Source of the DNA: Escherichia phage HY126
Sequence record: PP658200.1
Direction: 5' to 3' (one strand)
Length of the DNA stretch: 64,000 nt
Numbering within the stretch: position 1 is the first letter of the stretch; every line of letters begins with the position of its first letter. A program made the translations under genes and the position numbers. Below the pieces are notes generated by a model. The model did no database searches. It had not been told where the DNA came from and saw only the letters and a program-made list of their open reading frames with translations. Below are positions 3,303 to 58,270 of the stretch, piece after piece.

Positions 3303-3341
3303 AGTATTCTCCAGAGGCCTTAAATTAATAAGGCCATCTTA

Positions 3342-3809
3342 TCACAACTTATTAATATTTACTTTAATTCGCTTTCTTTTCTTGGAAGGAATTTGTTCGG
3401 GACCTTTATTTACGACTGCACCTGTAGTAGTTCCTGATGCAATAGCTTGAGGACTGCCACCTGAATCACCAGCAACCATATCCTCAAATAAAGGGAGTTC
3501 TTTAAATATTTCTTTCTGCTGTTCTTCGGTAATGTTATAGCGTGAAGCTACAGCACTCCAAGCAGACATCATTGAGGCCATTCCATTAAGACCTGGAACA
3601 GTGCTCATCATTCGCTTCATTGAACGAACTGAAGCATGAAAAGGTGTATAAGCCGCTTTCTCTTCGGGAGTAGAAGGACGTTTAAGAACACTTCCACGTT
3701 CATCGATGATTTTGGCTTCGTATGCTTTCCATTCGGTAAAAGGTTTTTGCATTAGTCGAATAAACTTATATGCGTAAACAGAATCTATTGCAGTGTTAAT
3801 AATACCCAT
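3342..3809 (-). CDS. hypothetical protein (T4 61.1 region)
   Basis: Minus ORF; start refined to MGIINTAID with AGGAGG SD; C-terminal basic KKRKRIK tail. Confidence 0.55.
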   Translation of the reverse strand: MGIINTAIDSVYAYKFIRLMQKPFTEWKAYEAKIIDERGSVLKRPSTPEEKAAYTPFHASVRSMKRMMSTVPGLNGMASMMSAWSAVASRYNITEEQQKEIFKELPLFEDMVAGDSGGSPQAIASGTTTGAVVNKGPEQIPSKKRKRIKVNINKL

Positions 3810-3828
3810 AGGTACCTCCTGAGTATAT

Positions 3829-4026
3829 TTAATCAATTACAAAGATTGCTTTGTCACCATTTATATCCGTGACTTCATATGTAGTGCCTTCATACTGTGG
3901 AATATTCCAAATTACACCATCATTAGCTTTTACGCTAATATGGCATTGGTGTTTTGAAACAACTTCGTAATCTTCAAAACTTGTAAAAACACTAATTTTA
4001 GAACCAGTGCAAATTGCAGTAGTCAT
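3829..4026 (-). CDS. hypothetical protein (65 aa)
   Basis: Minus ORF tiling between neighbours; no motif recognised. Confidence 0.5.
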   Translation of the reverse strand: MTTAICTGSKISVFTSFEDYEVVSKHQCHISVKANDGVIWNIPQYEGTTYEVTDINGDKAIFVID

Positions 4027-4027
4027 T

Positions 4028-4687
4028 TTAACCTCGATTCATAAATGCATTAAATATTTGGTCATCAACAGAAATTTCTAATTCAGCTTCAATTGTTTCA
4101 GCCTTTTCTTCAGGTGGTAATTCGTATCCACACACTACAATTTTTTCATCGATATCAAAATATACAGAAGCAATATGATTAATGTTATTTTCAGTTAAGT
4201 CTAAATCAACATCAACATCTTTTTGACCTACACTTAAAGGATAACTAATACGGGTTATTTTATTATCTTTAACAAAGAGTCCACCGACATACTCTGTACT
4301 ACGTTTGAAGTTTACACGTTTCCGAAATGAAAGATATGATGCATCTTTACCGTGAGCTCGGCTCATAGGACATAATGAATAGCTAGAATAAGAGATGTCA
4401 AATCCTACACCTTCAATATGAGCCAACGCGTCGTGATTAAACCAATTATAATCATATGCCAAATCCATTATATTGTAATATGTGAAAGGCACCGGATTAA
4501 CATCATACGTTGTACCTTTAAAATCTGCCCAGGCAACGATTTCGTTATCTTTAACAATTACAAAAATTACACCAATATGGTATCCGTTATTATTTTCATT
4601 CGGCGTTATATTATAACATTGTGCATTAGGAAATTTACCATATTTAAATGGCGCATTTTTGTGCATATAATAAATCATATTATTCAC
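4028..4687 (-). CDS. hypothetical protein (219 aa)
   Basis: Minus ORF, overlaps sp stop by a few nt (coupled); no motif recognised. Confidence 0.6.
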   Translation of the reverse strand: MNNMIYYMHKNAPFKYGKFPNAQCYNITPNENNNGYHIGVIFVIVKDNEIVAWADFKGTTYDVNPVPFTYYNIMDLAYDYNWFNHDALAHIEGVGFDISYSSYSLCPMSRAHGKDASYLSFRKRVNFKRSTEYVGGLFVKDNKITRISYPLSVGQKDVDVDLDLTENNINHIASVYFDIDEKIVVCGYELPPEEKAETIEAELEISVDDQIFNAFMNRG

Positions 4688-5346: not shown

Positions 5347-5715
5347 TTAGTTAAATTTGTTTAAACGTTCAATACACTGGACGTAGTTATTCGCGATTTG
5401 TTTCTGGGTAGGCTCATTACCAGTTGTTTCAACATAGCGAATGAATGCGATTTCAGTAGCCTGTAGACAATGTTCTTTAACGCGTTGTTCTTTTGACAAT
5501 GCTACAGTATCAGAGTCACGATAACGTTGAGCATGGGCATCAGCTTGAATCATTCGATTACCTACAGTAACCGGGTCTTCCACTTCAACTTTAGGTTGTT
5601 CATACTGTTTAACATTCGGATTGTAAATCAGTTGGCCGACGTTATTAGGAATAAAGCCATGGGCACCACATCCTGTTAATCCAAATACCATTGCTAAAGC
5701 GATTAATTTTTTCAT
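5347..5715 (-). CDS. predicted lipoprotein (122 aa)
   Basis: Signal peptide with lipobox LTGC (MKKLIALAMVFGLTGC). Confidence 0.7.
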   Translation of the reverse strand: MKKLIALAMVFGLTGCGAHGFIPNNVGQLIYNPNVKQYEQPKVEVEDPVTVGNRMIQADAHAQRYRDSDTVALSKEQRVKEHCLQATEIAFIRYVETTGNEPTQKQIANNYVQCIERLNKFN

Positions 5716-5743
5716 TTCAATTTCCTCTGTAGTTGATAGAAAG

Positions 5744-5773
5744 ATAGTAACACAGTATGTGGTGCTTGTAAAC
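5744..5773 (-). promoter_or_regulatory. T4-early-like promoter upstream of lipoprotein gene
   Basis: Minus strand GTTTAC - 17 nt - TACTAT-like -10; SD AGGAAATTGAA follows. Confidence 0.45.
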
Positions 5774-5775
5774 AG

Positions 5776-5988
5776 CTATTTTAAACTTTTGCGAAATTTG
5801 CGTTTTTCTTGACGAATCTGTCGTTTAGTCGGACGTACAGCAAATTTAACGAAGTCCACTTTGCCGTGTGGAAACTTTTCAGATGCTTCACAGTCCATCA
5901 TTAGTTCCCATCCTTCCAGAATAAGAGCTTTCCATTGTGTAGTTGATGCAAATTCGTATGTTGATGGTTTAAACACAGTTGAATACAT
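5776..5988 (-). CDS. small basic protein, VRPTKRQ-motif family (paralog c)
   Basis: Start refined to MYSTVF (GAGGAT SD); C-terminus FAVRPTKRQIRQEKRKFRK shared with two ORFs near 33790-34564. Confidence 0.5.
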   Translation of the reverse strand: MYSTVFKPSTYEFASTTQWKALILEGWELMMDCEASEKFPHGKVDFVKFAVRPTKRQIRQEKRKFRKSLK

Positions 5989-5989
5989 A

Positions 5990-6181
5990 TTATCCTCTGA
6001 AATCAGCTTCAAAAACTTTCTCGTCATTAACAAATGCTTTAACTAATGCTTTGTTCACTTCAGCAAGTTGTACCGCAACCCACTCGATTTCTTCACGGTC
6101 ACCTGATAACATGATATCTTTAGTGAACGTATTATCATTTTTAAACCAGCCAATAAAAGTAACTTTAGTTAATTTGCTCAT
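5990..6181 (-). CDS. hypothetical protein (about 63 aa)
   Basis: Start refined to MSKLTKV, ATGA-coupled to upstream gene; dmd-like position but not verified. Confidence 0.45.
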   Translation of the reverse strand: MSKLTKVTFIGWFKNDNTFTKDIMLSGDREEIEWVAVQLAEVNKALVKAFVNDEKVFEADFRG

Positions 6182-6495
6182 ATTTCCTCGCAAAATGCCC
6201 ATTCAGCGTGATAAACTGTAGCACCTTTAGTATTATTCATTTGAACTACGTCTACCGGAGAAATTACTCGATAGAGGCGTGGTTCACCTCCATAAGAGCG
6301 TGCAGCTCGTCCTGCATAAATCTTTGCTAAACCGATATCTTCAGTAAAGAATACACGATCCAAGTTTTTCTTACGTCCAGTTTCAGACAGAACTCCTGTT
6401 TCCTCAGGAGGACAAAGCATGTTTTCGATGTTAGCTGAACTACTTGAACCGTGATAAAAAATCTTAAATTCTGCTTTACAATCGATGGTTTTCAT
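6178..6495 (-). CDS. hypothetical protein (105 aa)
   Basis: Minus ORF with GGAGAA SD and own promoter; no reliable motif. Confidence 0.55.
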   Translation of the reverse strand: MKTIDCKAEFKIFYHGSSSSANIENMLCPPEETGVLSETGRKKNLDRVFFTEDIGLAKIYAGRAARSYGGEPRLYRVISPVDVVQMNNTKGATVYHAEWAFCEEI

Positions 6496-6499
6496 TTTG

Positions 6500-6550
6500 T
6501 TCTCCAGTAGTTGATAGGTCTATAATAACACAACTACTGGAGAAGTAAAC
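6500..6550 (-). promoter_or_regulatory. early promoter embedded in 14-bp inverted repeat that pairs with the SD
   Basis: Minus strand GTTTAC-TTCTCCAGTAGTTG-...TATTAT...-CAACTACTGGAGAA-CAAAATG; halves at 6500-6513 and 6531-6544 are perfect complements; downstream half contains the SD. Confidence 0.55.
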
Positions 6551-6925
6551 TTAAAAACGTAATTTAGATACATCTGCGTTGATTTCGGTTTGGTTTGCGT
6601 CGTATGCAATTAAACGAACCGCTTTAGATGGGTCATTCAATGCATAGAAATGATGAAACATTGCTCGAACGATATCACCATTTACGAGTTCTACCTGGAT
6701 AGGAGAACCTTTTTCAAGTTGGAAATGTTCATAAGCTTTGATGGTTCGCAGATAATCAAGTTTTTGATTTCCGGCTCCAACAATTTGTACGATACGTTTG
6801 CCTGTGTTTTCCATACGAGATACAATAGTTTTAGGAGCAAGAATAACGTAGGTTGCCAGCGGAGAAACTACTTCAACAGTTGTGTTTTCGGTGATTGCAG
6901 TAAAAATTGCTTGAGACATATTCAT
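6551..6925 (-). CDS. hypothetical protein (124 aa)
   Basis: Minus ORF with AAGAGGAAAA SD; no motif recognised. Confidence 0.6.
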   Translation of the reverse strand: MNMSQAIFTAITENTTVEVVSPLATYVILAPKTIVSRMENTGKRIVQIVGAGNQKLDYLRTIKAYEHFQLEKGSPIQVELVNGDIVRAMFHHFYALNDPSKAVRLIAYDANQTEINADVSKLRF

Positions 6926-6991
6926 AATGTTTTCCTCTTGGTTTGTGTAAGTACATCATATCATGCCTAGAGGAAGATGTAAACCCCGAAA

Positions 6992-7016
6992 GGAGACCGA
7001 AGTCTCCTTTTTATTA
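6992..7016 (+). terminator. plus-strand intrinsic terminator
   Basis: AGGAGAC-CGAA-GTCTCCT hairpin followed by TTTTATT on the plus strand; no U-tract on minus strand. Confidence 0.5.
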
Positions 7017-8456
7017 AAATTTTAACTCATTGGCTAAGCTATCTAGGTCAGCACGTGTTGCTTTGGCTTTACCTACGCGTTCCGTACGATTCACCTCTGC
7101 CTGACGCATCTGAGCACCTGCATTTTCATTTACTGTGTTAGATGTGTTCATGCCTTCTTGCTCAATCTCAATCCATTTCTGGTTGCCTTTACGTACACCC
7201 ATCAGGAATTTATTCCACTTATTCTTATCGCCGTATCGTGATTTGATTTGTTTGATAAGTTGTTGTTCAGCTTGTGCAAGTTCTTCGGTTTCAATTACAG
7301 CCAACATGAAATCTGCCGTTGCTGGTAAACCTGCTGATTCTGCGATATCACTCATGTTCATGTCTGAAGCATCCCATGCTGCACGTCCTACTTGAGCTGC
7401 AGTCCATAGAACTGTTTCAGATTCTACTGCTAATGCACGAAGTTCTTCTGCGATAGCTTTAACTAATGTGTAACTATTTTCAGTGTAAACTCTGATACGA
7501 CAAGACCCACAAATACCTAAGTAATCAACCATGATTACAGATGGCACAAAGTTCTTCTTAAGTTTTAACTCATTAAGCAATGCACGAAATGTATTAGCAT
7601 TAGCTCCACCAGTAGGATACTGCTTAACTACTAAACGTCCTAATGTGGATTTTGAACGCCATTTTTCCATCTTGGCTTTATATTCAGCATAAGATACGTT
7701 ACCATCATCGATATCGTCGAGCGATACGTCAAGCATGTTTGCATCTATACGCTTAGCACAAACTTCTTCAGCCATTTCCATAGAAATATAAAGAACATTA
7801 TGACCTGTTTGAAGATAATCTGCAGCAAGTGAACAAAGGCCTAAAGATTTACCAACGTTAACACCAGCCATTAAAACGTTTAGTGTACCTGTTTCAGCAC
7901 CACCTTTAGTGATTTTATTCAAAATGTTTAATTTGAACGGGACCTTACGTGCTTTGTTCAGATAAGAAAGCCAGCGTGCTTCATAGTCTTCCATCCAGTC
8001 ATGCCCAACATAACTATCAAACGAAATTGAAAGTGCTTGACGCATAATATCAGGAATAGCTCCTACGTCAGGCATTTTCTTGTTACGTTGTTCTGGAGGT
8101 AGTTCAGCATTAGACTGAATCTCAATGATTTTGGATGTAGCGTTATACATCGCTTTTTGCTGGACATATTTCTCAGTTTCTTTAACCAACCATTCATGGT
8201 CTTCAGGAGTATCAGCCAATTTTTCAATTAGATCTGAAGTTCCTTTATATTCGGCTTCAGTTAAAGAACTGTTATCTAAAGCCACCTTTAATGCATTGAT
8301 AGATGGCATTGCATTATATTCGTTAACGTGGCTCTTTATAATTTTAAAGACGTTTTTTGCCGGTCCACGCTCAAAATACTCAGAATCCATATAAGGCCAG
8401 ACCTTAGAAAAATAAGCCTGGTCATATACGAGATGAGACAAAATAATTTCTACCAC
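7014..8456 (-). CDS. 41: DNA primase-helicase gp41 (DnaB-like)
   Basis: 480 aa; near-identical to T4 gp41 as recalled (MVEIILSHL..., Walker A GVNVGKS, C-terminal ANELKF); start may be GTG. Confidence 0.95.
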   Translation of the reverse strand: MVEIILSHLVYDQAYFSKVWPYMDSEYFERGPAKNVFKIIKSHVNEYNAMPSINALKVALDNSSLTEAEYKGTSDLIEKLADTPEDHEWLVKETEKYVQQKAMYNATSKIIEIQSNAELPPEQRNKKMPDVGAIPDIMRQALSISFDSYVGHDWMEDYEARWLSYLNKARKVPFKLNILNKITKGGAETGTLNVLMAGVNVGKSLGLCSLAADYLQTGHNVLYISMEMAEEVCAKRIDANMLDVSLDDIDDGNVSYAEYKAKMEKWRSKSTLGRLVVKQYPTGGANANTFRALLNELKLKKNFVPSVIMVDYLGICGSCRIRVYTENSYTLVKAIAEELRALAVESETVLWTAAQVGRAAWDASDMNMSDIAESAGLPATADFMLAVIETEELAQAEQQLIKQIKSRYGDKNKWNKFLMGVRKGNQKWIEIEQEGMNTSNTVNENAGAQMRQAEVNRTERVGKAKATRADLDSLANELKF

Positions 8457-52801: not shown

Positions 52802-53042
52802 CTCGGTCCCATGATTTGGCCATTAATTCGGACATAAATTCTTCAATGCGCGTTTCTTTAGATGGACTTTCACTATTAGAGACCGCAAGTTTGTAATCTG
52901 CAATAGGACAGAACATATCAAGGTCCATATTAAGGTCGTCTTTGATTTTTTCTTCTGACACATCTTTATCGTATGTGTACAGATAACTATCACATGATTC
53001 TGATTTAATGTAAATTGCTATACTCATCTCAAATTCCTGCAT
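52791..53042 (-). CDS. hypothetical acidic protein (83 aa)
   Basis: Minus ORF. Confidence 0.5.
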   Translation of the reverse strand: MQEFEMSIAIYIKSESCDSYLYTYDKDVSEEKIKDDLNMDLDMFCPIADYKLAVSNSESPSKETRIEEFMSELMAKSWDRDDE

Positions 53043-53515
53043 TCGGTAATAAAACGTTCAACTTCATTATTCTTGGCTTTTATCTTGTCTTTATGTTCTT
53101 GTAAACTACTTTTAATAAGATTAATAATGATGCCTACAGTACCTCCACCAATTATACCGCCAATTATACTTACGATAGTAGATGCTAATAAGATAGCAAT
53201 AATATCAACAAAACCGAAAGAACTCACCTTAGTACTAAAAAACCACACTGATGGTACAAATATAATCCATCCTGTTATCCATTGACACTTATTGAAAAAC
53301 TTTTCAAGCTCAGCTTGAGTTGTTCGTATTACTTCATCGATAGGTTGATAACCATTAATATGTCTGTTCACGATAATACCTGCTGGCTGGTCGATTTTAA
53401 ATTCTTGGCAAATACGTTTCACTAAGTAGGATGGACATCCTGTCCAATCCACTGAATAGTACGAAATACCTTCATTGCCGTCGTCAATATTAGACCAATA
53501 TGTTTTGTTAATCAT
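53024..53515 (-). CDS. membrane protein with Gly-zipper segment (163 aa)
   Basis: Hydrophobic/Gly-rich helix (…IVSIIGGIIGGGTVGIIINLI…). Confidence 0.5.
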   Translation of the reverse strand: MINKTYWSNIDDGNEGISYYSVDWTGCPSYLVKRICQEFKIDQPAGIIVNRHINGYQPIDEVIRTTQAELEKFFNKCQWITGWIIFVPSVWFFSTKVSSFGFVDIIAILLASTIVSIIGGIIGGGTVGIIINLIKSSLQEHKDKIKAKNNEVERFITECRNLR

Positions 53516-54201
53516 TACCAGCCTTCCATAGGGAATTCCAGATAAACTTGAGCGTTGACACGAATTTCGTTGGTAATCTTTTTAACTCGGTCTGTATTAC
53601 GAGATACACGTCCGAACCAACGCCATCCATTACTAATTGCACGAGAACCAGTGTGCCATGTTTGCCAATCAAACTGAAGAAGAGTACGGTCTGGAGCTTC
53701 CCATTTCTCTAGTTCGCCTTTTTCGATTTTTTCGAGGACTTCTTTGTGCCACTGGCGATAGATAAGTTCGCCATCAGGAATCTGACTGAACTCTGCAGTT
53801 CCTGTTGCAAAATGAGTAGGACACACATCAGCGTTAACAAGACCAAGAATATGTTCAGAATGGTAACGAGGGTTGTCATAATCAGGTTGTCCTGCAGTAA
53901 TAAAGTGTTGACCAACCGGAATATCCGGGCGTGGTACATCATCATGGTGATAACCTGGGATAGCAGGGTACCAACCAGGCATCAGCATGTGGACTCGTGA
54001 ATCAAATACAACCTGGTCGGTGTTCCAATCATCAGGCAAGTTCATGATGAAGCTGCGAGTAATAGGACCACCGTTATTATAAGCAAATTCTAAACTACAG
54101 TTGAAGAACATAGGCTCGTTTTTAATCTGGTCATTTTTAATCGCATGAGCAAAACCACCTACTGCACGAGCTTGACTATTAAACACTTTAGAACTATTCA
54201 T
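53515..54201 (-). CDS. hypothetical protein (about 228 aa)
   Basis: Start refined to MNSSKVF with GAGGAAAATAAT SD. Confidence 0.55.
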   Translation of the reverse strand: MNSSKVFNSQARAVGGFAHAIKNDQIKNEPMFFNCSLEFAYNNGGPITRSFIMNLPDDWNTDQVVFDSRVHMLMPGWYPAIPGYHHDDVPRPDIPVGQHFITAGQPDYDNPRYHSEHILGLVNADVCPTHFATGTAEFSQIPDGELIYRQWHKEVLEKIEKGELEKWEAPDRTLLQFDWQTWHTGSRAISNGWRWFGRVSRNTDRVKKITNEIRVNAQVYLEFPMEGW

Positions 54202-54202
54202 A

Positions 54203-54508
54203 TTATTTTCCTCGACATTCTTTAACAAAATTTTCTAAATCTGTTGATTCAATAGCTTTTTTACGAGCTTCAGCGTGTTCTTCTTCAGTTAATCTACGTT
54301 TAAACTTGACCCAAACATTATGGTCGAAACCTGTTGTCGCGTATAATAACAGAGCACCAACGAATAACAAAAACGGTGATAAAAATACACAACCAGGAAC
54401 ACCGTCCATGCCATAGGCCTTTTGTAATACTGCAACAGAAAGCACAGCATAAAAAGGTGATGTAAGTATCGTTAAAAGGCCAATTCGGTTGGTTTCGGAT
54501 AATTTCAT
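54203..54508 (-). CDS. membrane protein (about 101 aa)
   Basis: Start refined to MKLSETNRIG with GAGGAGAA SD; hydrophobic helices. Confidence 0.5.
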   Translation of the reverse strand: MKLSETNRIGLLTILTSPFYAVLSVAVLQKAYGMDGVPGCVFLSPFLLFVGALLLYATTGFDHNVWVKFKRRLTEEEHAEARKKAIESTDLENFVKECRGK

Positions 54509-54565
54509 AATATTCTCCTCATGTTTAATAGGACTACTATAACATAGTCCTATCAGTTTGTACAC

Positions 54566-54846: not shown

Positions 54847-55803
54847 TTATTTGAAAGGTTTTACCATATGGAAATTTTGTTTGAAACGTTTGACGTAATC
54901 GTCATGTCCTAAGCTTTGGTACATACTTACTACTTTGCTGTAGTTTTCCCAGGCATACTCACGGAACCAACCAGAGGTGATGCTTGTACAGACTTTTTCC
55001 AATGCCATCATGAAACTGACTTCAGGATTAATTTTAAAGTCATTAGGAATTTGAGAACGTTCTAATGCTAGTACACATGATTCTTCGTATACACCGGCCA
55101 ATTTGACCATTTCTGGTAATGATTCAAACTTCTCGCGTGAGGTCATGACTTCAGAACCATCTTTCATATAAAATGTATACGCTGGACGGTCTGTTAGTGC
55201 AATGGCTTCATGAATAGTATCATGGTCATACGTATAGATGTCATCTTTAAAGAACGCACTTTTAGAAGTGTCAAGAACTGGGTGAGCATAGTTCAAGGTT
55301 TCTTTCTGGCGTTTCAGCATAATTTCAGTAAGTTCATCGTTCAGTGTAACACCTTTACCACGAAGATACTGAATATGGTTCATAGTCTTTAAAAAGAATG
55401 GATTATTTTTCTTGAAACGATGAGACATCTTAATTGCAAGACATAACTCAGGAGTTGCCCAATAAAACCCGTTCAAACGGTCTTTAGACAAATTTTTCTT
55501 GGCGTATTTTAAAAGGTCATAAGAAGACGTGAAATCTTCAGGAGTGAGTTCACCGACTAATTCACGGACATTAGTGATTGCCGGAACAATATATGCTTCA
55601 AAATGAGTTTCGCGTCCATTATGGAAGCATTTGAAAACTTGGACATCAGGGTTATCTTGTTGAACATATACACCCATCATTTGATTTTTGAATGCATTCC
55701 AAGAACCTTGGTCTGCAATAAAGTCCCAGTCACTATTTTTGATAGCGTTAGAATCAATAAGACCATGATAGTGAAGTGCACGAGAACCAATAACTAACAT
55801 CAT
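54847..55803 (-). CDS. hypothetical protein (318 aa)
   Basis: Minus ORF; no motif. Confidence 0.6.
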   Translation of the reverse strand: MMLVIGSRALHYHGLIDSNAIKNSDWDFIADQGSWNAFKNQMMGVYVQQDNPDVQVFKCFHNGRETHFEAYIVPAITNVRELVGELTPEDFTSSYDLLKYAKKNLSKDRLNGFYWATPELCLAIKMSHRFKKNNPFFLKTMNHIQYLRGKGVTLNDELTEIMLKRQKETLNYAHPVLDTSKSAFFKDDIYTYDHDTIHEAIALTDRPAYTFYMKDGSEVMTSREKFESLPEMVKLAGVYEESCVLALERSQIPNDFKINPEVSFMMALEKVCTSITSGWFREYAWENYSKVVSMYQSLGHDDYVKRFKQNFHMVKPFK

Positions 55804-55831: not shown

Positions 55832-56083
55832 TTAAATTTCACGACATGCGATATCATATTCATCCCAGAGGTCATCGTGTGAAGCCTCTACCAATGGAAC
55901 GATTGTACCATTTATGTCTTCATTATAAGGGCAAATTGTACAGTGTGCGTCTTCGAATCGGATACCTTTGTGTTCAGATTTTTTATAACGCATATCGAAT
56001 ATCTTTGCAAATTTTTCACGAGTAATGGTTTTACCAACCACTTTGGTTCCGATACTTTCGTAATAAATCATTGTGGACTCCAT
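55832..56083 (-). CDS. hypothetical protein (83 aa)
   Basis: Minus ORF; HCTICPY cysteine pair. Confidence 0.5.
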   Translation of the reverse strand: MESTMIYYESIGTKVVGKTITREKFAKIFDMRYKKSEHKGIRFEDAHCTICPYNEDINGTIVPLVEASHDDLWDEYDIACREI

Positions 56084-56099
56084 TTAATTTGATAGGACT

Positions 56100-56129
56100 A
56101 CTATAACATAGCCCTATCTTGTTGTAAAC
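56100..56129 (-). promoter_or_regulatory. T4-early-like promoter with palindromic GATAGGACTA element
   Basis: GTTTAC - 18 nt - TATAGT; palindrome gataggactactataacatagccctatc. Confidence 0.5.
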
Positions 56130-56133
56130 TGTT

Positions 56134-56331
56134 TTAGCAAGAATAACTAGACGATACCCAGCCTTGAACAGTGATACTATTGTGGGATAATGAGATCGCG
56201 TCCTGGAGATTCAGACCTGCGTTATCTTCAATCCATAACGTAACTTCTTCGCGTTCTTCTGTTGCAATTTGGAACAGGTTTTCCAGAGCAGCTACTGCCG
56301 TACGTACAGCACAATCTAATTCACGAGACAT
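56134..56331 (-). CDS. small protein, C-terminal W-x-SS-x-x-C family (paralog 1)
   Basis: 65 aa ending QGWVSSSYSC; two similar ORFs follow in tandem. Confidence 0.45.
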   Translation of the reverse strand: MSRELDCAVRTAVAALENLFQIATEEREEVTLWIEDNAGLNLQDAISLSHNSITVQGWVSSSYSC

Positions 56332-56340
56332 ATGGTTTCC

Positions 56341-56613
56341 TTAGCAAGTGTGAGAAGATGCGATCCAACCACCAGTTTCGAGGCTTAGGTTGTAGTCGTA
56401 TTGGTAAACGTCGGCCCATTCAGCATAGCCGTTTTTTGTACAACGTTCAAGGTCGGCTTTAAGCTGTCCGGGTGAATGATATGTTCCACCCATACCATAA
56501 GCTGGATACAAGTCGAATGTTGTGTTTTGTTTATCAGCAATTTCTTTGGCAGCCTCAATAGCTGCATAGATTTTTGCTACAGCTTCAGCCAGTTCGGTTT
56601 GTTCTTTAGACAT
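56341..56613 (-). CDS. small protein, C-terminal W-x-SS-x-x-C family (paralog 2)
   Basis: 90 aa ending GGWIASSHTC. Confidence 0.5.
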   Translation of the reverse strand: MSKEQTELAEAVAKIYAAIEAAKEIADKQNTTFDLYPAYGMGGTYHSPGQLKADLERCTKNGYAEWADVYQYDYNLSLETGGWIASSHTC

Positions 56614-56622
56614 AGTGATTCC

Positions 56623-56928
56623 TTAGCACAACGCAGAAGACGAAACCCAAGCACCTTCAGTAATAACGTAACCATTACCTTCACGCTTAACATCGCCACC
56701 ATTATTTTCAATTTCATTTTTCATCCACTGGGATACGATTTCACCCTTAGGATAATAAGTACGACCGCTACCATAATCACCTACAGAAAATGATACGGCA
56801 TATTGGTCTGCGATCTTTGTTGCTTCTTCTTCGATACGTTCAGCTTGATTCAGAAGTTTATAAATTGCATCTGAAGCGGATTTGGCATCATTAAACTCTG
56901 GTACTTTAATTTCAATAATCTTACTCAT
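56623..56928 (-). CDS. small protein, C-terminal W-x-SS-x-x-C family (paralog 3)
   Basis: 101 aa ending GAWVSSSALC. Confidence 0.5.
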   Translation of the reverse strand: MSKIIEIKVPEFNDAKSASDAIYKLLNQAERIEEEATKIADQYAVSFSVGDYGSGRTYYPKGEIVSQWMKNEIENNGGDVKREGNGYVITEGAWVSSSALC

Positions 56929-57284
56929 TTTCTACATTCCTTAATAAAGTTTTCGATTGTTTCATTTTCACGTCTAGCTAGGAGTTCATTATAACTAATC
57001 ATTTGAGAAGCGTAAACCTTTTTATTTTTCTTGTTGTGGTTTATAAAATCGTAGTAAAAATAGACTACAGTACAAAATGATGCGATGGATGCAAAGGCTT
57101 GGGTATACCGTAAGTCCTGCCATTGGTCTGTGAATCCACCAGTGTTCCCTATAAATCCTAACACAACGCCGTCAATAAGAAATCCAACTAATCCAAAGGC
57201 AAATCCCATGCCAATACTCATAATAAAAATTAGAATGTTCTCACCAAGAGAAGGCCATACGGTTAAGAGTTGAGGCTTTTGCAT
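56925..57284 (-). CDS. membrane protein (119 aa)
   Basis: Hydrophobic helices; ATGA-coupled. Confidence 0.5.
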   Translation of the reverse strand: MQKPQLLTVWPSLGENILIFIMSIGMGFAFGLVGFLIDGVVLGFIGNTGGFTDQWQDLRYTQAFASIASFCTVVYFYYDFINHNKKNKKVYASQMISYNELLARRENETIENFIKECRK

Positions 57285-57658
57285 CTTATTTCCTTAACGA
57301 ATTCCATAGCTTCTTCATATTCATACTTTTTAACAGCTTCATCATACTGAGCTTGGGCTTTTGCGCACTGAACTTTCCATTCTCTTAATCGGGCTCTGTG
57401 ATGACGGCCTTGGTGCCAATATCCTACCCAATTAATAGGCATTAATAAAAACGGTACAATAAGTGGTGCGACGAACATTAATGAAAATGCTGCATCAGAC
57501 GATATAACTTCACTAGAATCTAAAACAGCTCCTATAATCATAAAGATTAAAAATGCTAAAGCCAAAATAGGGCCAAATAGTACTTCGTTTGGGATTAATT
57601 TACGTTTGTATTCGTATGCCCAGGGCTTAATTGGCATGTACAGGGTTGGCTTTGACAT
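57263..57658 (-). CDS. membrane protein
   Basis: Hydrophobic helices; start uncertain (track ORF to 57688 overlaps upstream gene by 60 nt). Confidence 0.45.
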   Translation of the reverse strand: MSKPTLYMPIKPWAYEYKRKLIPNEVLFGPILALAFLIFMIIGAVLDSSEVISSDAAFSLMFVAPLIVPFLLMPINWVGYWHQGRHHRARLREWKVQCAKAQAQYDEAVKKYEYEEAMEFVKEIRCKSLNS

Positions 57659-58239
57659 ATTCTCTACATTCCATAATAAATTGCTCAAGGATTAAATTGT
57701 TAGTGAAATTAGGACTAACAACCATAGTTTCATAAAGCGCATCAATAGCACTTAAAGCATCAACTCTTTTAAGCAAAAGCTTGCCTTCATACATAGTTTC
57801 AGAATCGACGATTAACGTAAAGTAATATTTTTTATTATCGACTAGAACTTCTGTATCGATATAAAACATATTAGACCTCAGAAGCTTATCTCTAAAACCA
57901 TAATAATCTTCTGAATGTTCACTGATATATTCCCATTCAGTGTTTAAACAACAAACAGACCACGTAGGAGCGACGAAATCAGTGAATCTAATATCATGGT
58001 CTGCAACTAGTTTAGCAATAGCTCCGATATCATGAATCATAATACCTGGGGCTAATAAAGATTTTCTGCTATGGCTAGCCGTTTTCTCGGTGGTCTCATA
58101 AGAAGCTGACCAGTACCATTTACGTCCGGTTGCAACATATCGTAATGAATCAACTAAAGACGTAGGTGGATTTACCTTATCTCGGAACTCTTCGAACATT
58201 GAGTCAATATCATTATTTTGGTTTCGCATGTTAACTCCT
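57627..58239 (-). CDS. hypothetical protein
   Basis: Start refined to MRNQNNDID with AAAGGAG SD. Confidence 0.55.
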
Positions 58240-58248
58240 TTATTATCC

Positions 58249-58270
58249 AAAAGGAGGACCGGAGTCCTCC
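58249..58270 (-). terminator. possible intrinsic terminator
   Basis: Minus strand GGAGGAC-UCCG-GUCCUCC hairpin followed by UUUUGG; short U-tract. Confidence 0.4.

Follow-up and report, generated by a model that had tools for sequence, protein, structure and literature searches.

Nucleotidyltransferases encoded beside a small partner protein are known from several systems. MntA-HepT (MNT-HEPN, a type VII toxin-antitoxin pair) and GlnD-PII both contain a nucleotidyltransferase that modifies its small partner on a hydroxyl side chain. In the MenAT1 system, the nucleotidyltransferase MenT1 is inhibited by a 68-amino acid (aa) helical protein encoded upstream (PMC10435456). Here, we analyzed a window of 64,000 nucleotides from Escherichia phage HY126 (sequence record PP658200.1; the window is the whole stretch of DNA considered), in which three consecutive genes encode small proteins with a common C-terminal tail and are followed by the gene of a larger enzyme with a nucleotidyltransferase fold. 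Judged from sequence and fold comparisons, the locus resembles the pairs named above (MenAT1, MntA-HepT, GlnD-PII) and falls outside each of them at the level of sequence. It points to a two-part phage system, undescribed so far, whose role would probably be the modification of protein tails.

A family of small acidic proteins with a conserved tail

An earlier note on this DNA, made by reading the sequence, had pointed out three consecutive minus-strand open reading frames (ORFs) of 101, 90 and 65 aa with a shared tail, and the ORF list and the sequence confirmed them. Paralog 1 (56623..56928), the equivalent of RB69ORF139c/138c and intact here, ends in GAWVSSSALC; it is composed of a long N-terminal helix, a DYGSGRTYYP loop and the tail W-V-S-S-S-A-L-C (codons 56649-56626). 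Paralog 2 (56341..56613), annotated as RB69ORF137c in a related record, carries an AYGMGGTYH loop and ends in GGWIASSHTC, the tail W-I-A-S-S-H-T-C occupying codons 56367-56344. Paralog 3 (56134..56331; RB69ORF136c) ends in QGWVSSSYSC and represents a minimal form, with the helix and the tail W-V-S-S-S-Y-S-C (codons 56160-56137) and without the Y-G-x-G loop. The Cys, said in the note to lie two residues from the end, is in fact the very last residue and stands two residues after the Ser run. A regular-expression scan of the 950 stop-to-stop ORFs of at least 30 aa in the window found the ending W-x-[SA]-S-S-x-x-C in these three paralogs only, which is therefore not a chance effect of composition.

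Paralogs 1 and 2 matched phrog_899 (E values of 1.8e-22 and 1.9e-18) and paralog 3 matched phrog_4882 (E value of 7.7e-37), both being PHROGs of unknown function. In the near-identical locus L005, the three copies all matched the same family hidden Markov model (HMM), the 65-aa copy at 7.3e-6. Paralogy, which the note had supposed, is strongly supported, as is the conservation of the tail among homologs. Scans of the three paralogs against Pfam, NCBIfam and PADLOC gave no significant match, and no relative of the family was found in the PDB. Matches of the paralogs to XkdF and gp32 were weak, below the cut-offs, and were discarded. No paper on the family was found in the literature searched, and the literature may still hold one.

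Relatives of the 101-aa copy were detected by tBLASTn in 483 GenBank phage records, comprising Straboviridae of Escherichia, Klebsiella, Enterobacter, Aeromonas and others, together with Otagovirus of Pseudomonas and Phapecoctavirus of E. coli. A HMMER search of 1.84 billion cluster representatives returned at least 150 clusters at 50% identity, and among the matches listed nearly all family members had 67-143 aa and were aligned through their last residue. Motif statistics were computed on 152 representatives at 50% identity taken from the matches listed. Homologs were inspected for loss of the motif, and it proved to be kept: the final residue is Cys in 136 of the 152 representatives, and these Cys-ending proteins have Trp at position -8 (135/136), Ser at -5 (135/136) and Ser at -4 (133/136), with Ser, Ala or Pro at -6. 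Most of the 16 other representatives carry the motif with one extra residue after the Cys; the motif is absent from only eight, among which several show an evident truncation or frameshift. In 11 of the 136 members, the linker holds one or two further internal copies, W-x-S-S-(G/S)-C, and a short form, W-x-S-S-x-C, is the terminus of some members. The motif therefore behaves as a repeatable short linear motif.

Conservation also extends to the body of the proteins. Across 71 diverse members, residues A40, Y52, G53, G55 and Y58 are at least 90% conserved, as are the segment Y-G-M/S-G-G/R-T-Y-Y-P and the A-D that closes the N-terminal helix. The internal IAD / YxxGxY pattern that had been noticed in the two longer copies is thus a property of the whole family, with the 65-aa copy standing apart: the Y-G-x-G-x-T-Y-(Y-P) loop is present in the 101-aa and 90-aa copies and absent from the 65-aa copy. 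Because this loop is so widely conserved and yet missing from a family member, the alignments indicate that it is typical of the family and not obligatory. The proteins are predicted to begin with an N-terminal helix, followed in most cases by a Y-G-M/S-G-G-T-Y-Y-P loop, and to continue through a variable acidic linker to the tail W-x-[S/A/P]-S-S-x-x-C-COOH. An AlphaFold2 model of paralog 1 (predicted local distance difference test, pLDDT, of 91) consists of a helix and a small sheet. A second search with the family profile returned 226 clusters at 90% identity, all of them small and labelled "hypothetical", none with a Pfam domain.

These data bear on the roles that had been suggested for the terminal Cys. 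Half of the members, including the 101-aa copy, contain a single Cys (77/152), so that an intramolecular disulfide cannot be a family feature and a disulfide-stabilised fold is unsupported as a conserved role. The idea of an anchoring site finds no support: the proteins are acidic (median isoelectric point 4.5, net charge -8), and no hydrophobic N-terminal leader or lipobox was seen on reading the sequences, no predictor being used. The third idea, a modification site, is plausible in view of the candidate enzyme described below, to which the family is linked in a near-obligate manner; this linkage to an enzyme of nucleotidyltransferase fold supports it indirectly.

The three copies share only 25-32% pairwise identity overall, and the codons of the Ser run vary from one to the next (TCG TCT TCT, GCA TCT TCT and TCG TCT AGT). 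We considered whether the ending could be the by-product of a constraint on the DNA, in which a TGC-TAA-GGA stop doubles as part of the next ribosome-binding site, or the trace of a recent tandem duplication. Paralogs 1 and 2 do end in TGCTAAGGAA, which also serves as the Shine-Dalgarno sequence of the next paralog. However, paralog 3 ends in TGCTAAAACAG and no gene start lies downstream of it, so the ending is not a by-product of the ribosome-binding site of a following gene. The differing codons and the low identity imply a similarity maintained in the protein, as opposed to a recent repeat of the DNA, and the same tail recurs in unrelated phages, in over 130 clusters at 50% identity. Codon differences, low identity and the family-wide tail refute this explanation, to which we attach practically no probability.

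The same three paralog types are found in the same order in T4-like genera such as Dhakavirus, Krischvirus and Karamvirus; the triplication is therefore old. The genes are thus paralogs of long standing, within a family of small acidic proteins restricted to phages. In a pattern scan of bacterial and archaeal genomes, with one genome for each of 185,579 species, there was a single match, on a 167-kb phage-sized contig of a metagenome bin; the patterns were narrow and distant relatives could be missed. Within the reach of such narrow patterns, the module appears to be essentially phage-only.

Linkage of the small genes to a nucleotidyltransferase-fold enzyme

The most informative part of the locus is the partner enzyme, which the earlier note had not seen. 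Its gene (54847..55803, minus strand; RB69ORF134c) starts 330 bp downstream of paralog 3 and encodes a 318-aa protein with an N-terminal Pol-beta-type nucleotidyltransferase domain and a C-terminal helical domain. In Pseudomonas phage PN09 and E. coli phage phiWec188, a single member of the small family is likewise followed by a gene of about 315 aa whose product is 44-45% identical to the 318-aa enzyme.

We assessed this association from both sides. Among 80 IMG/VR loci fetched by conserved peptides of the enzyme, a family member was present by HMM in 69, in each case on the same strand and no more than about 3.3 kb upstream, and relaxed searching recovered divergent members in five more (74/80). 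After dereplication, an upstream partner was found in 28 of 29 enzyme clusters at 60% identity and in 38 of 40 at 70%. On the small-protein side, 42 loci were fetched by the peptide YGMGGTY; the enzyme gene was located within 1.6 kb downstream, on the same strand, in 40 of them, and the remaining two loci end at a contig edge right after the small genes, so that linkage was observed in 40 of 40 informative loci. The sole exception to the gene order was a locus with six copies, one of them downstream of the enzyme gene. Clustering of all ORFs of the 80 loci showed that the small family is the only neighbour common to all lineages: the pair is kept in Straboviridae, Otagovirus and Phapecoctavirus, while all other neighbouring genes differ. 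Many loci carry two to six paralogs for a single enzyme gene. The small proteins never occurred without the enzyme in the loci examined; the enzyme sometimes occurs without them.

Some further gene associations were observed around the enzyme gene. Directly upstream of it, two loci (L054, 5467-5985; L074, 5407-5928) carry ORFs of 172-173 aa, as called from the first start codon, that are extended at the N-terminus by about 100 aa and terminate in the short form of the tail, ...N-S-(N/G)-W-D-S-S-(T/S)-C. A gene for a metallophosphoesterase of the Ser/Thr-phosphatase type lies near the enzyme gene in 16 of the 80 loci (for example L042, 7198-7977, on a 355-kb contig), not in all lineages, and one is also annotated close by in phage phiWec188 (L004, 1112-1849).

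Pfam recognizes only DUF7277 (N-terminal) and DUF7275 in the enzyme. Homologs numbered 2212 in a large protein collection and were present in 735 phage records, a few of which label them "putative nucleotidyltransferase". Among 34 diverse homologs, residues G6, S7, D25, D27 and E69 are invariant; they compose the hG[GS]...DxD...acid signature of Pol-beta nucleotidyltransferases, and the first four are kept in distant homologs as well. The C-terminal domain has its own set of invariant residues in the same 34 homologs (K125, H128, H174, H194, D195, H198, D215, E240, E241, C243, E248, R249, C272 and S277-G-W-F-R-E), the last belonging to a CTSITSGWFRE motif. The structure model of the enzyme (pLDDT 91) contains a nucleotidyltransferase fold of the MenT/AbiEii/ANT type, with MenT1 as the best structural match. 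By sequence, the enzyme had no match among solved structures in the PDB even at an E value of 10; it is therefore placed outside DUF1814, and the resemblance is one of fold only. The idea that DUF7275 is an HD domain, such as follows the nucleotidyltransferase domain in GlnD-type bifunctional enzymes, found no support. RlaP, an RNA-ligase-associated nucleotidyltransferase from a review on jumbo phages, was considered and set aside as a different protein, there being in the two Pfam assignments of the enzyme no sign that it is RlaP. No paper on DUF7275, DUF7277 or the RB69 ORF names was found in the literature searched.

The lineages in which the enzyme stands alone differ in sequence from the others. 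Distant homologs in actinophages and a Vibrio phage (L128, L130, L132) lack residues 45-100, including E69, as well as CTSITSGWFRE and C272, and have no recognisable partner. In two closer lineages without a partner (L045, 6004-6930; L072, 5788-6714), W279 is replaced by Arg, giving S-G-R-F-R-(T/E) instead of S-G-W-F-R-E. There is thus a hint, from few events, that partner loss tracks loss of W279 or of the SGWFRE segment.

Two observations concern the more distant homologs. In Brevibacillus phage Sundance, an ORF (L129, 3175-3456) just upstream of a 28%-identical enzyme homolog ends in ...EEEEYSSSYYEEEEYSSSYYEED; it has an acidic linker and two Y-S-S-S-Y-Y repeats, and contains no Trp or Cys. 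This ORF may be an analogue of the tail in a phage of Gram-positive bacteria, and it hints that the aromatic and Ser-run part would be the older core of the tail. In Gordonia phage Norvs (L128), the enzyme homolog (3309-4100) lies about 1.2 kb upstream of a tRNA gene cluster (5350-7495), and in T4-like phages (the window and L001) only a few kb separate the module from the cluster of phage tRNA genes. The MenT-like fold makes a connection between the enzyme and tRNA conceivable, but the proximity may be a coincidence.

Possible roles of the small proteins

The module has no sequence match to DUF1814, AbiEi, COG5340 or MenA1, so that its likeness to MenAT1 and AbiE is confined to the fold of the enzyme. 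Unlike those systems, it is restricted to phages, mostly virulent ones, and has several small paralogs per enzyme; the enzyme differs from the MenT1 and AbiE toxins by a much larger and very conserved C-terminal domain (DUF7275). Conversely, MenA1 has neither the W-x-S-S-S-x-x-C-COOH tail nor the Y-G-M-G-G-T-Y-Y-P loop, and the small proteins gave no Pfam, NCBIfam, PADLOC or fold match that would designate an antitoxin of the AbiEi/COG5340 or MenA1 type. MntA-HepT and GlnD-PII share the logic proposed here, a Pol-beta-fold enzyme beside a small protein that it O-nucleotidylylates. The partner of MntA is a HEPN protein, whereas the small proteins have no HEPN match and are modelled as a helix and a small sheet, with no four-helix match. 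The nucleotidyltransferases ANT(2'') and LnuA act on small-molecule antibiotics, have 160-180 aa and no dedicated protein partner, and show no sequence similarity to the enzyme.

The reading that we favour, tentatively and with a little less than even confidence, is that the small proteins are substrates whose C-terminal tail would be nucleotidylylated by the enzyme. We infer that the small proteins and the DUF7277-DUF7275 enzyme interact physically and act together. The exposed tail would dock in the active site through its Trp and its free C-terminal Cys, and the acceptor of a nucleotide monophosphate would be the hydroxyl of one Ser in the Ser-Ser pair, or else the thiol of the Cys; the identity of the nucleotide, the choice of the acceptor residue and the direction of action, substrate as against inhibitor, are all part of this proposal. 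The conjugates of protein and nucleotide so formed would act on targets in the host early in infection, each paralog presenting the same tail on a different body. Several features argue for this reading. The invariant positions are nucleophiles (Ser, Ser and Cys) and one aromatic anchor, as for a recognition or acceptor site, and the motif can be repeated inside a protein. One enzyme gene serves several paralogs with different bodies, which fits several substrates of one maturase and not a one-to-one toxin-antitoxin pair. The structural relatives of the enzyme all transfer a nucleotide monophosphate to a hydroxyl group. Lastly, the linkage is near-obligate in both directions and across phage groups, and it is the small proteins that never occur alone whereas the enzyme can. 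The covariation of partner loss with changes at W279 or in SGWFRE adds a weak argument on the same side.

Other features weigh against the small proteins being substrates. The MenT toxins, the closest structural relatives of the enzyme, act on tRNA and not on proteins. In the AlphaFold2 model, the Trp and the Ser run sit in a beta-strand and a short helix of the folded domain and not in a floppy tail, confidence being low only at the last residue. The His/Asp/Glu-rich invariant set of the C-terminal domain could be a second, metal-dependent active site with another chemistry. Moreover, nucleotidylylation of Ser alone does not explain why the Cys is strictly terminal; this most puzzling feature is poorly explained by every reading.

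An opposite direction of action, in which the small proteins would be MenA1-like inhibitors or regulators of the enzyme, similar to antitoxins, is the main rival and in our view somewhat less likely. The enzyme would then be a MenT-like tRNA or RNA nucleotidyltransferase that the phage turns on translation or defence RNAs of its host; the long helix of the acidic proteins would bind in the electropositive substrate cleft of the enzyme, and the C-terminal Cys would plug the active or metal site, limiting or timing the activity. That MenT1, to which the enzyme is structurally closest, is itself regulated by a small helical protein from an upstream gene (PMC10435456) suits inhibitors just as well as substrates, and the acidity of the family would suit a mimic of an RNA substrate. 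Yet several paralogs per enzyme and internal repeats of the tail are unusual for antitoxins, which also usually diverge fast, while here the tail stays invariant even where the enzymes have only about 40% identity. Within the reach of the narrow patterns, bacterial genomes lack the module save for the one match on a phage-sized contig; it is carried by virulent phages, in which addiction makes little sense, and its small proteins have no sequence or fold similarity to MenA1, AbiEi or COG5340. The tail might instead function independently of the enzyme, the two being co-inherited as one accessory block. The tail could then bind metal, form an intermolecular disulfide or a thiol adduct with some protein of the host, or serve as a C-terminal tag read by a host protease or PDZ domain. 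A motif tied to the free carboxylate is a typical target of PDZ domains or proteases, the additional repeats with Cys in the acidic linkers would be well suited to metal binding, and the enzyme does occur without small proteins in actinophages, some Vibrio phages and a few other lineages. Nevertheless, the adjacency of the genes in every informative locus, in phage groups that share no other neighbour and with gene order and strand fixed, is hard to account for without selection for co-function, which makes an independent tail clearly unlikely.

We also considered a maturation resembling that of ribosomally synthesized and post-translationally modified peptides (RiPPs), in which O-nucleotidylylation of Ser would lead to dehydroalanine and the terminal Cys would add to it, closing a lanthionine- or aminovinyl-cysteine (AviCys)-like ring at S-x-x-C-COOH as a cross-linked C-terminal cap. 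The AviCys ring of epidermin is formed by the pair Ser19...Cys22, and the S(-4)-x-x-C(-1)-COOH spacing of the tail is the same: in precursors of the epidermin type, too, a Ser stands three residues ahead of a Cys that is strictly C-terminal. The loci share further traits of RiPP clusters, namely more than one precursor per enzyme gene or cluster and repeated S-S-x-C units. In contrast to such clusters, no LanD/HFCD decarboxylase or dehydratase is found nearby, and neither these nor a lyase or cyclase family recurs in the ORF clustering of the 80 loci. The proteins are predicted to be folded domains of 65-140 aa, with the motif inside the fold, and not leader-core peptides, and we are aware of no case in which a Pol-beta nucleotidyltransferase takes part in forming lanthionine. 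We therefore hold a ring of this kind to be highly improbable.

Taken further, the favoured reading of the small proteins as substrates leads to a more specific proposal, which we regard as rather unlikely in its full form. Virulent phages of many groups would encode a dedicated tail-modification system, in which a MenT-fold enzyme would put nucleotides or a short nucleotide chain on the Ser/Cys tails of small acidic carriers, and the conjugates would serve as decoys or inhibitors of host RNA- or nucleotide-sensing machinery. Such a system would amount to a new class of post-translational modification, employed for host takeover or counter-defence.

Organization of the locus and significance

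The region is 98-99% identical to genomes of Mosigvirus (RB69-like T4-type phages), and annotated relatives place the paralogs between the membrane-protein gene e.3 and RB69ORF134c/e.2. In T4, e.2 and e.3 overlap by 4 nt (L133, 7653-8320) and the paralog block is absent at that junction; the approximately 3 kb that separate e.2 from e.3 here, comprising the three paralogs, an 83-aa ORF, the enzyme gene and further small ORFs, are therefore an accessory insertion relative to T4. The 83-aa ORF (55832..56083, minus strand; phrog_3723) lies between the paralogs and the enzyme gene. It was rejected as a third component, being confined to T4-like phages in the clustering of the 80 loci. Paralog 1 is intact in most Mosigvirus genomes. 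The RB69 reference (AY303349, 69737-70040) splits it into ORF139c and ORF138c, which appear as two tBLASTn pieces, and the deposited 71-aa protein ends in ...SQWYEK; the split is either a frameshift or a sequencing error.

The three paralog genes are separated by spacers of 9 nt, and each has an ATG behind a ribosome-binding site of the AGGAA type. A promoter-like site of the sigma-70 or middle type, TTTACG-17-TATAAT (56988..57016, minus strand), identified as a consensus match only, lies inside e.3 about 60 nt upstream of paralog 1; a T4 middle promoter is annotated inside e.3 of phage SA35RD at roughly the same position. Just past paralog 3, a 10-bp hairpin with one G-U pair and without a T run (GATAGGGCTA / TAGTCCTATC; 56091..56118, minus strand) is labelled as a terminator in one related record. 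Both elements, as consensus matches, are consistent with early or middle expression.

A second motif, (N/R)F(I/V)xECR(K/G/N), was observed at or near the C-terminus of five neighbouring minus-strand ORFs (53024-53581, 54203-54565, 56925-57284, 57263-57688 and 57627-58250), which are genes of the e.2-e.5 type; related records describe several of their products as membrane proteins. Its instances are FITECRNLR, FVKECRGK, FIKECRK, FVKEIRCK and FIMECREY, and in most of the five ORFs it overlaps or directly precedes the start of the next gene. It could be either a feature of the proteins or a signal for translational coupling.

The family of small proteins is carried by hundreds of sequenced phages, including T4-like phages of the therapeutic type infecting E. 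coli, Klebsiella, Enterobacter and Acinetobacter, as well as jumbo phages. The family is unnamed, lacks both a Pfam model and a solved structure, and is the subject of no paper that we found in the literature searched; its partner enzyme is represented in Pfam by two DUFs only. Should the small proteins be substrates, the system would add a new kind of protein modification to phage biology. Should they be inhibitors, it would be the first MenT-like pair of enzyme and regulator from virulent phages, and it would point to the tailing of tRNA or RNA as a weapon of phages. In both cases, a working hypothesis is gained for four "hypothetical" genes of the RB69 group; it is concrete and cheaply testable, since the small partners have an invariant nucleophilic tail and are tightly coupled to a nucleotidyltransferase.

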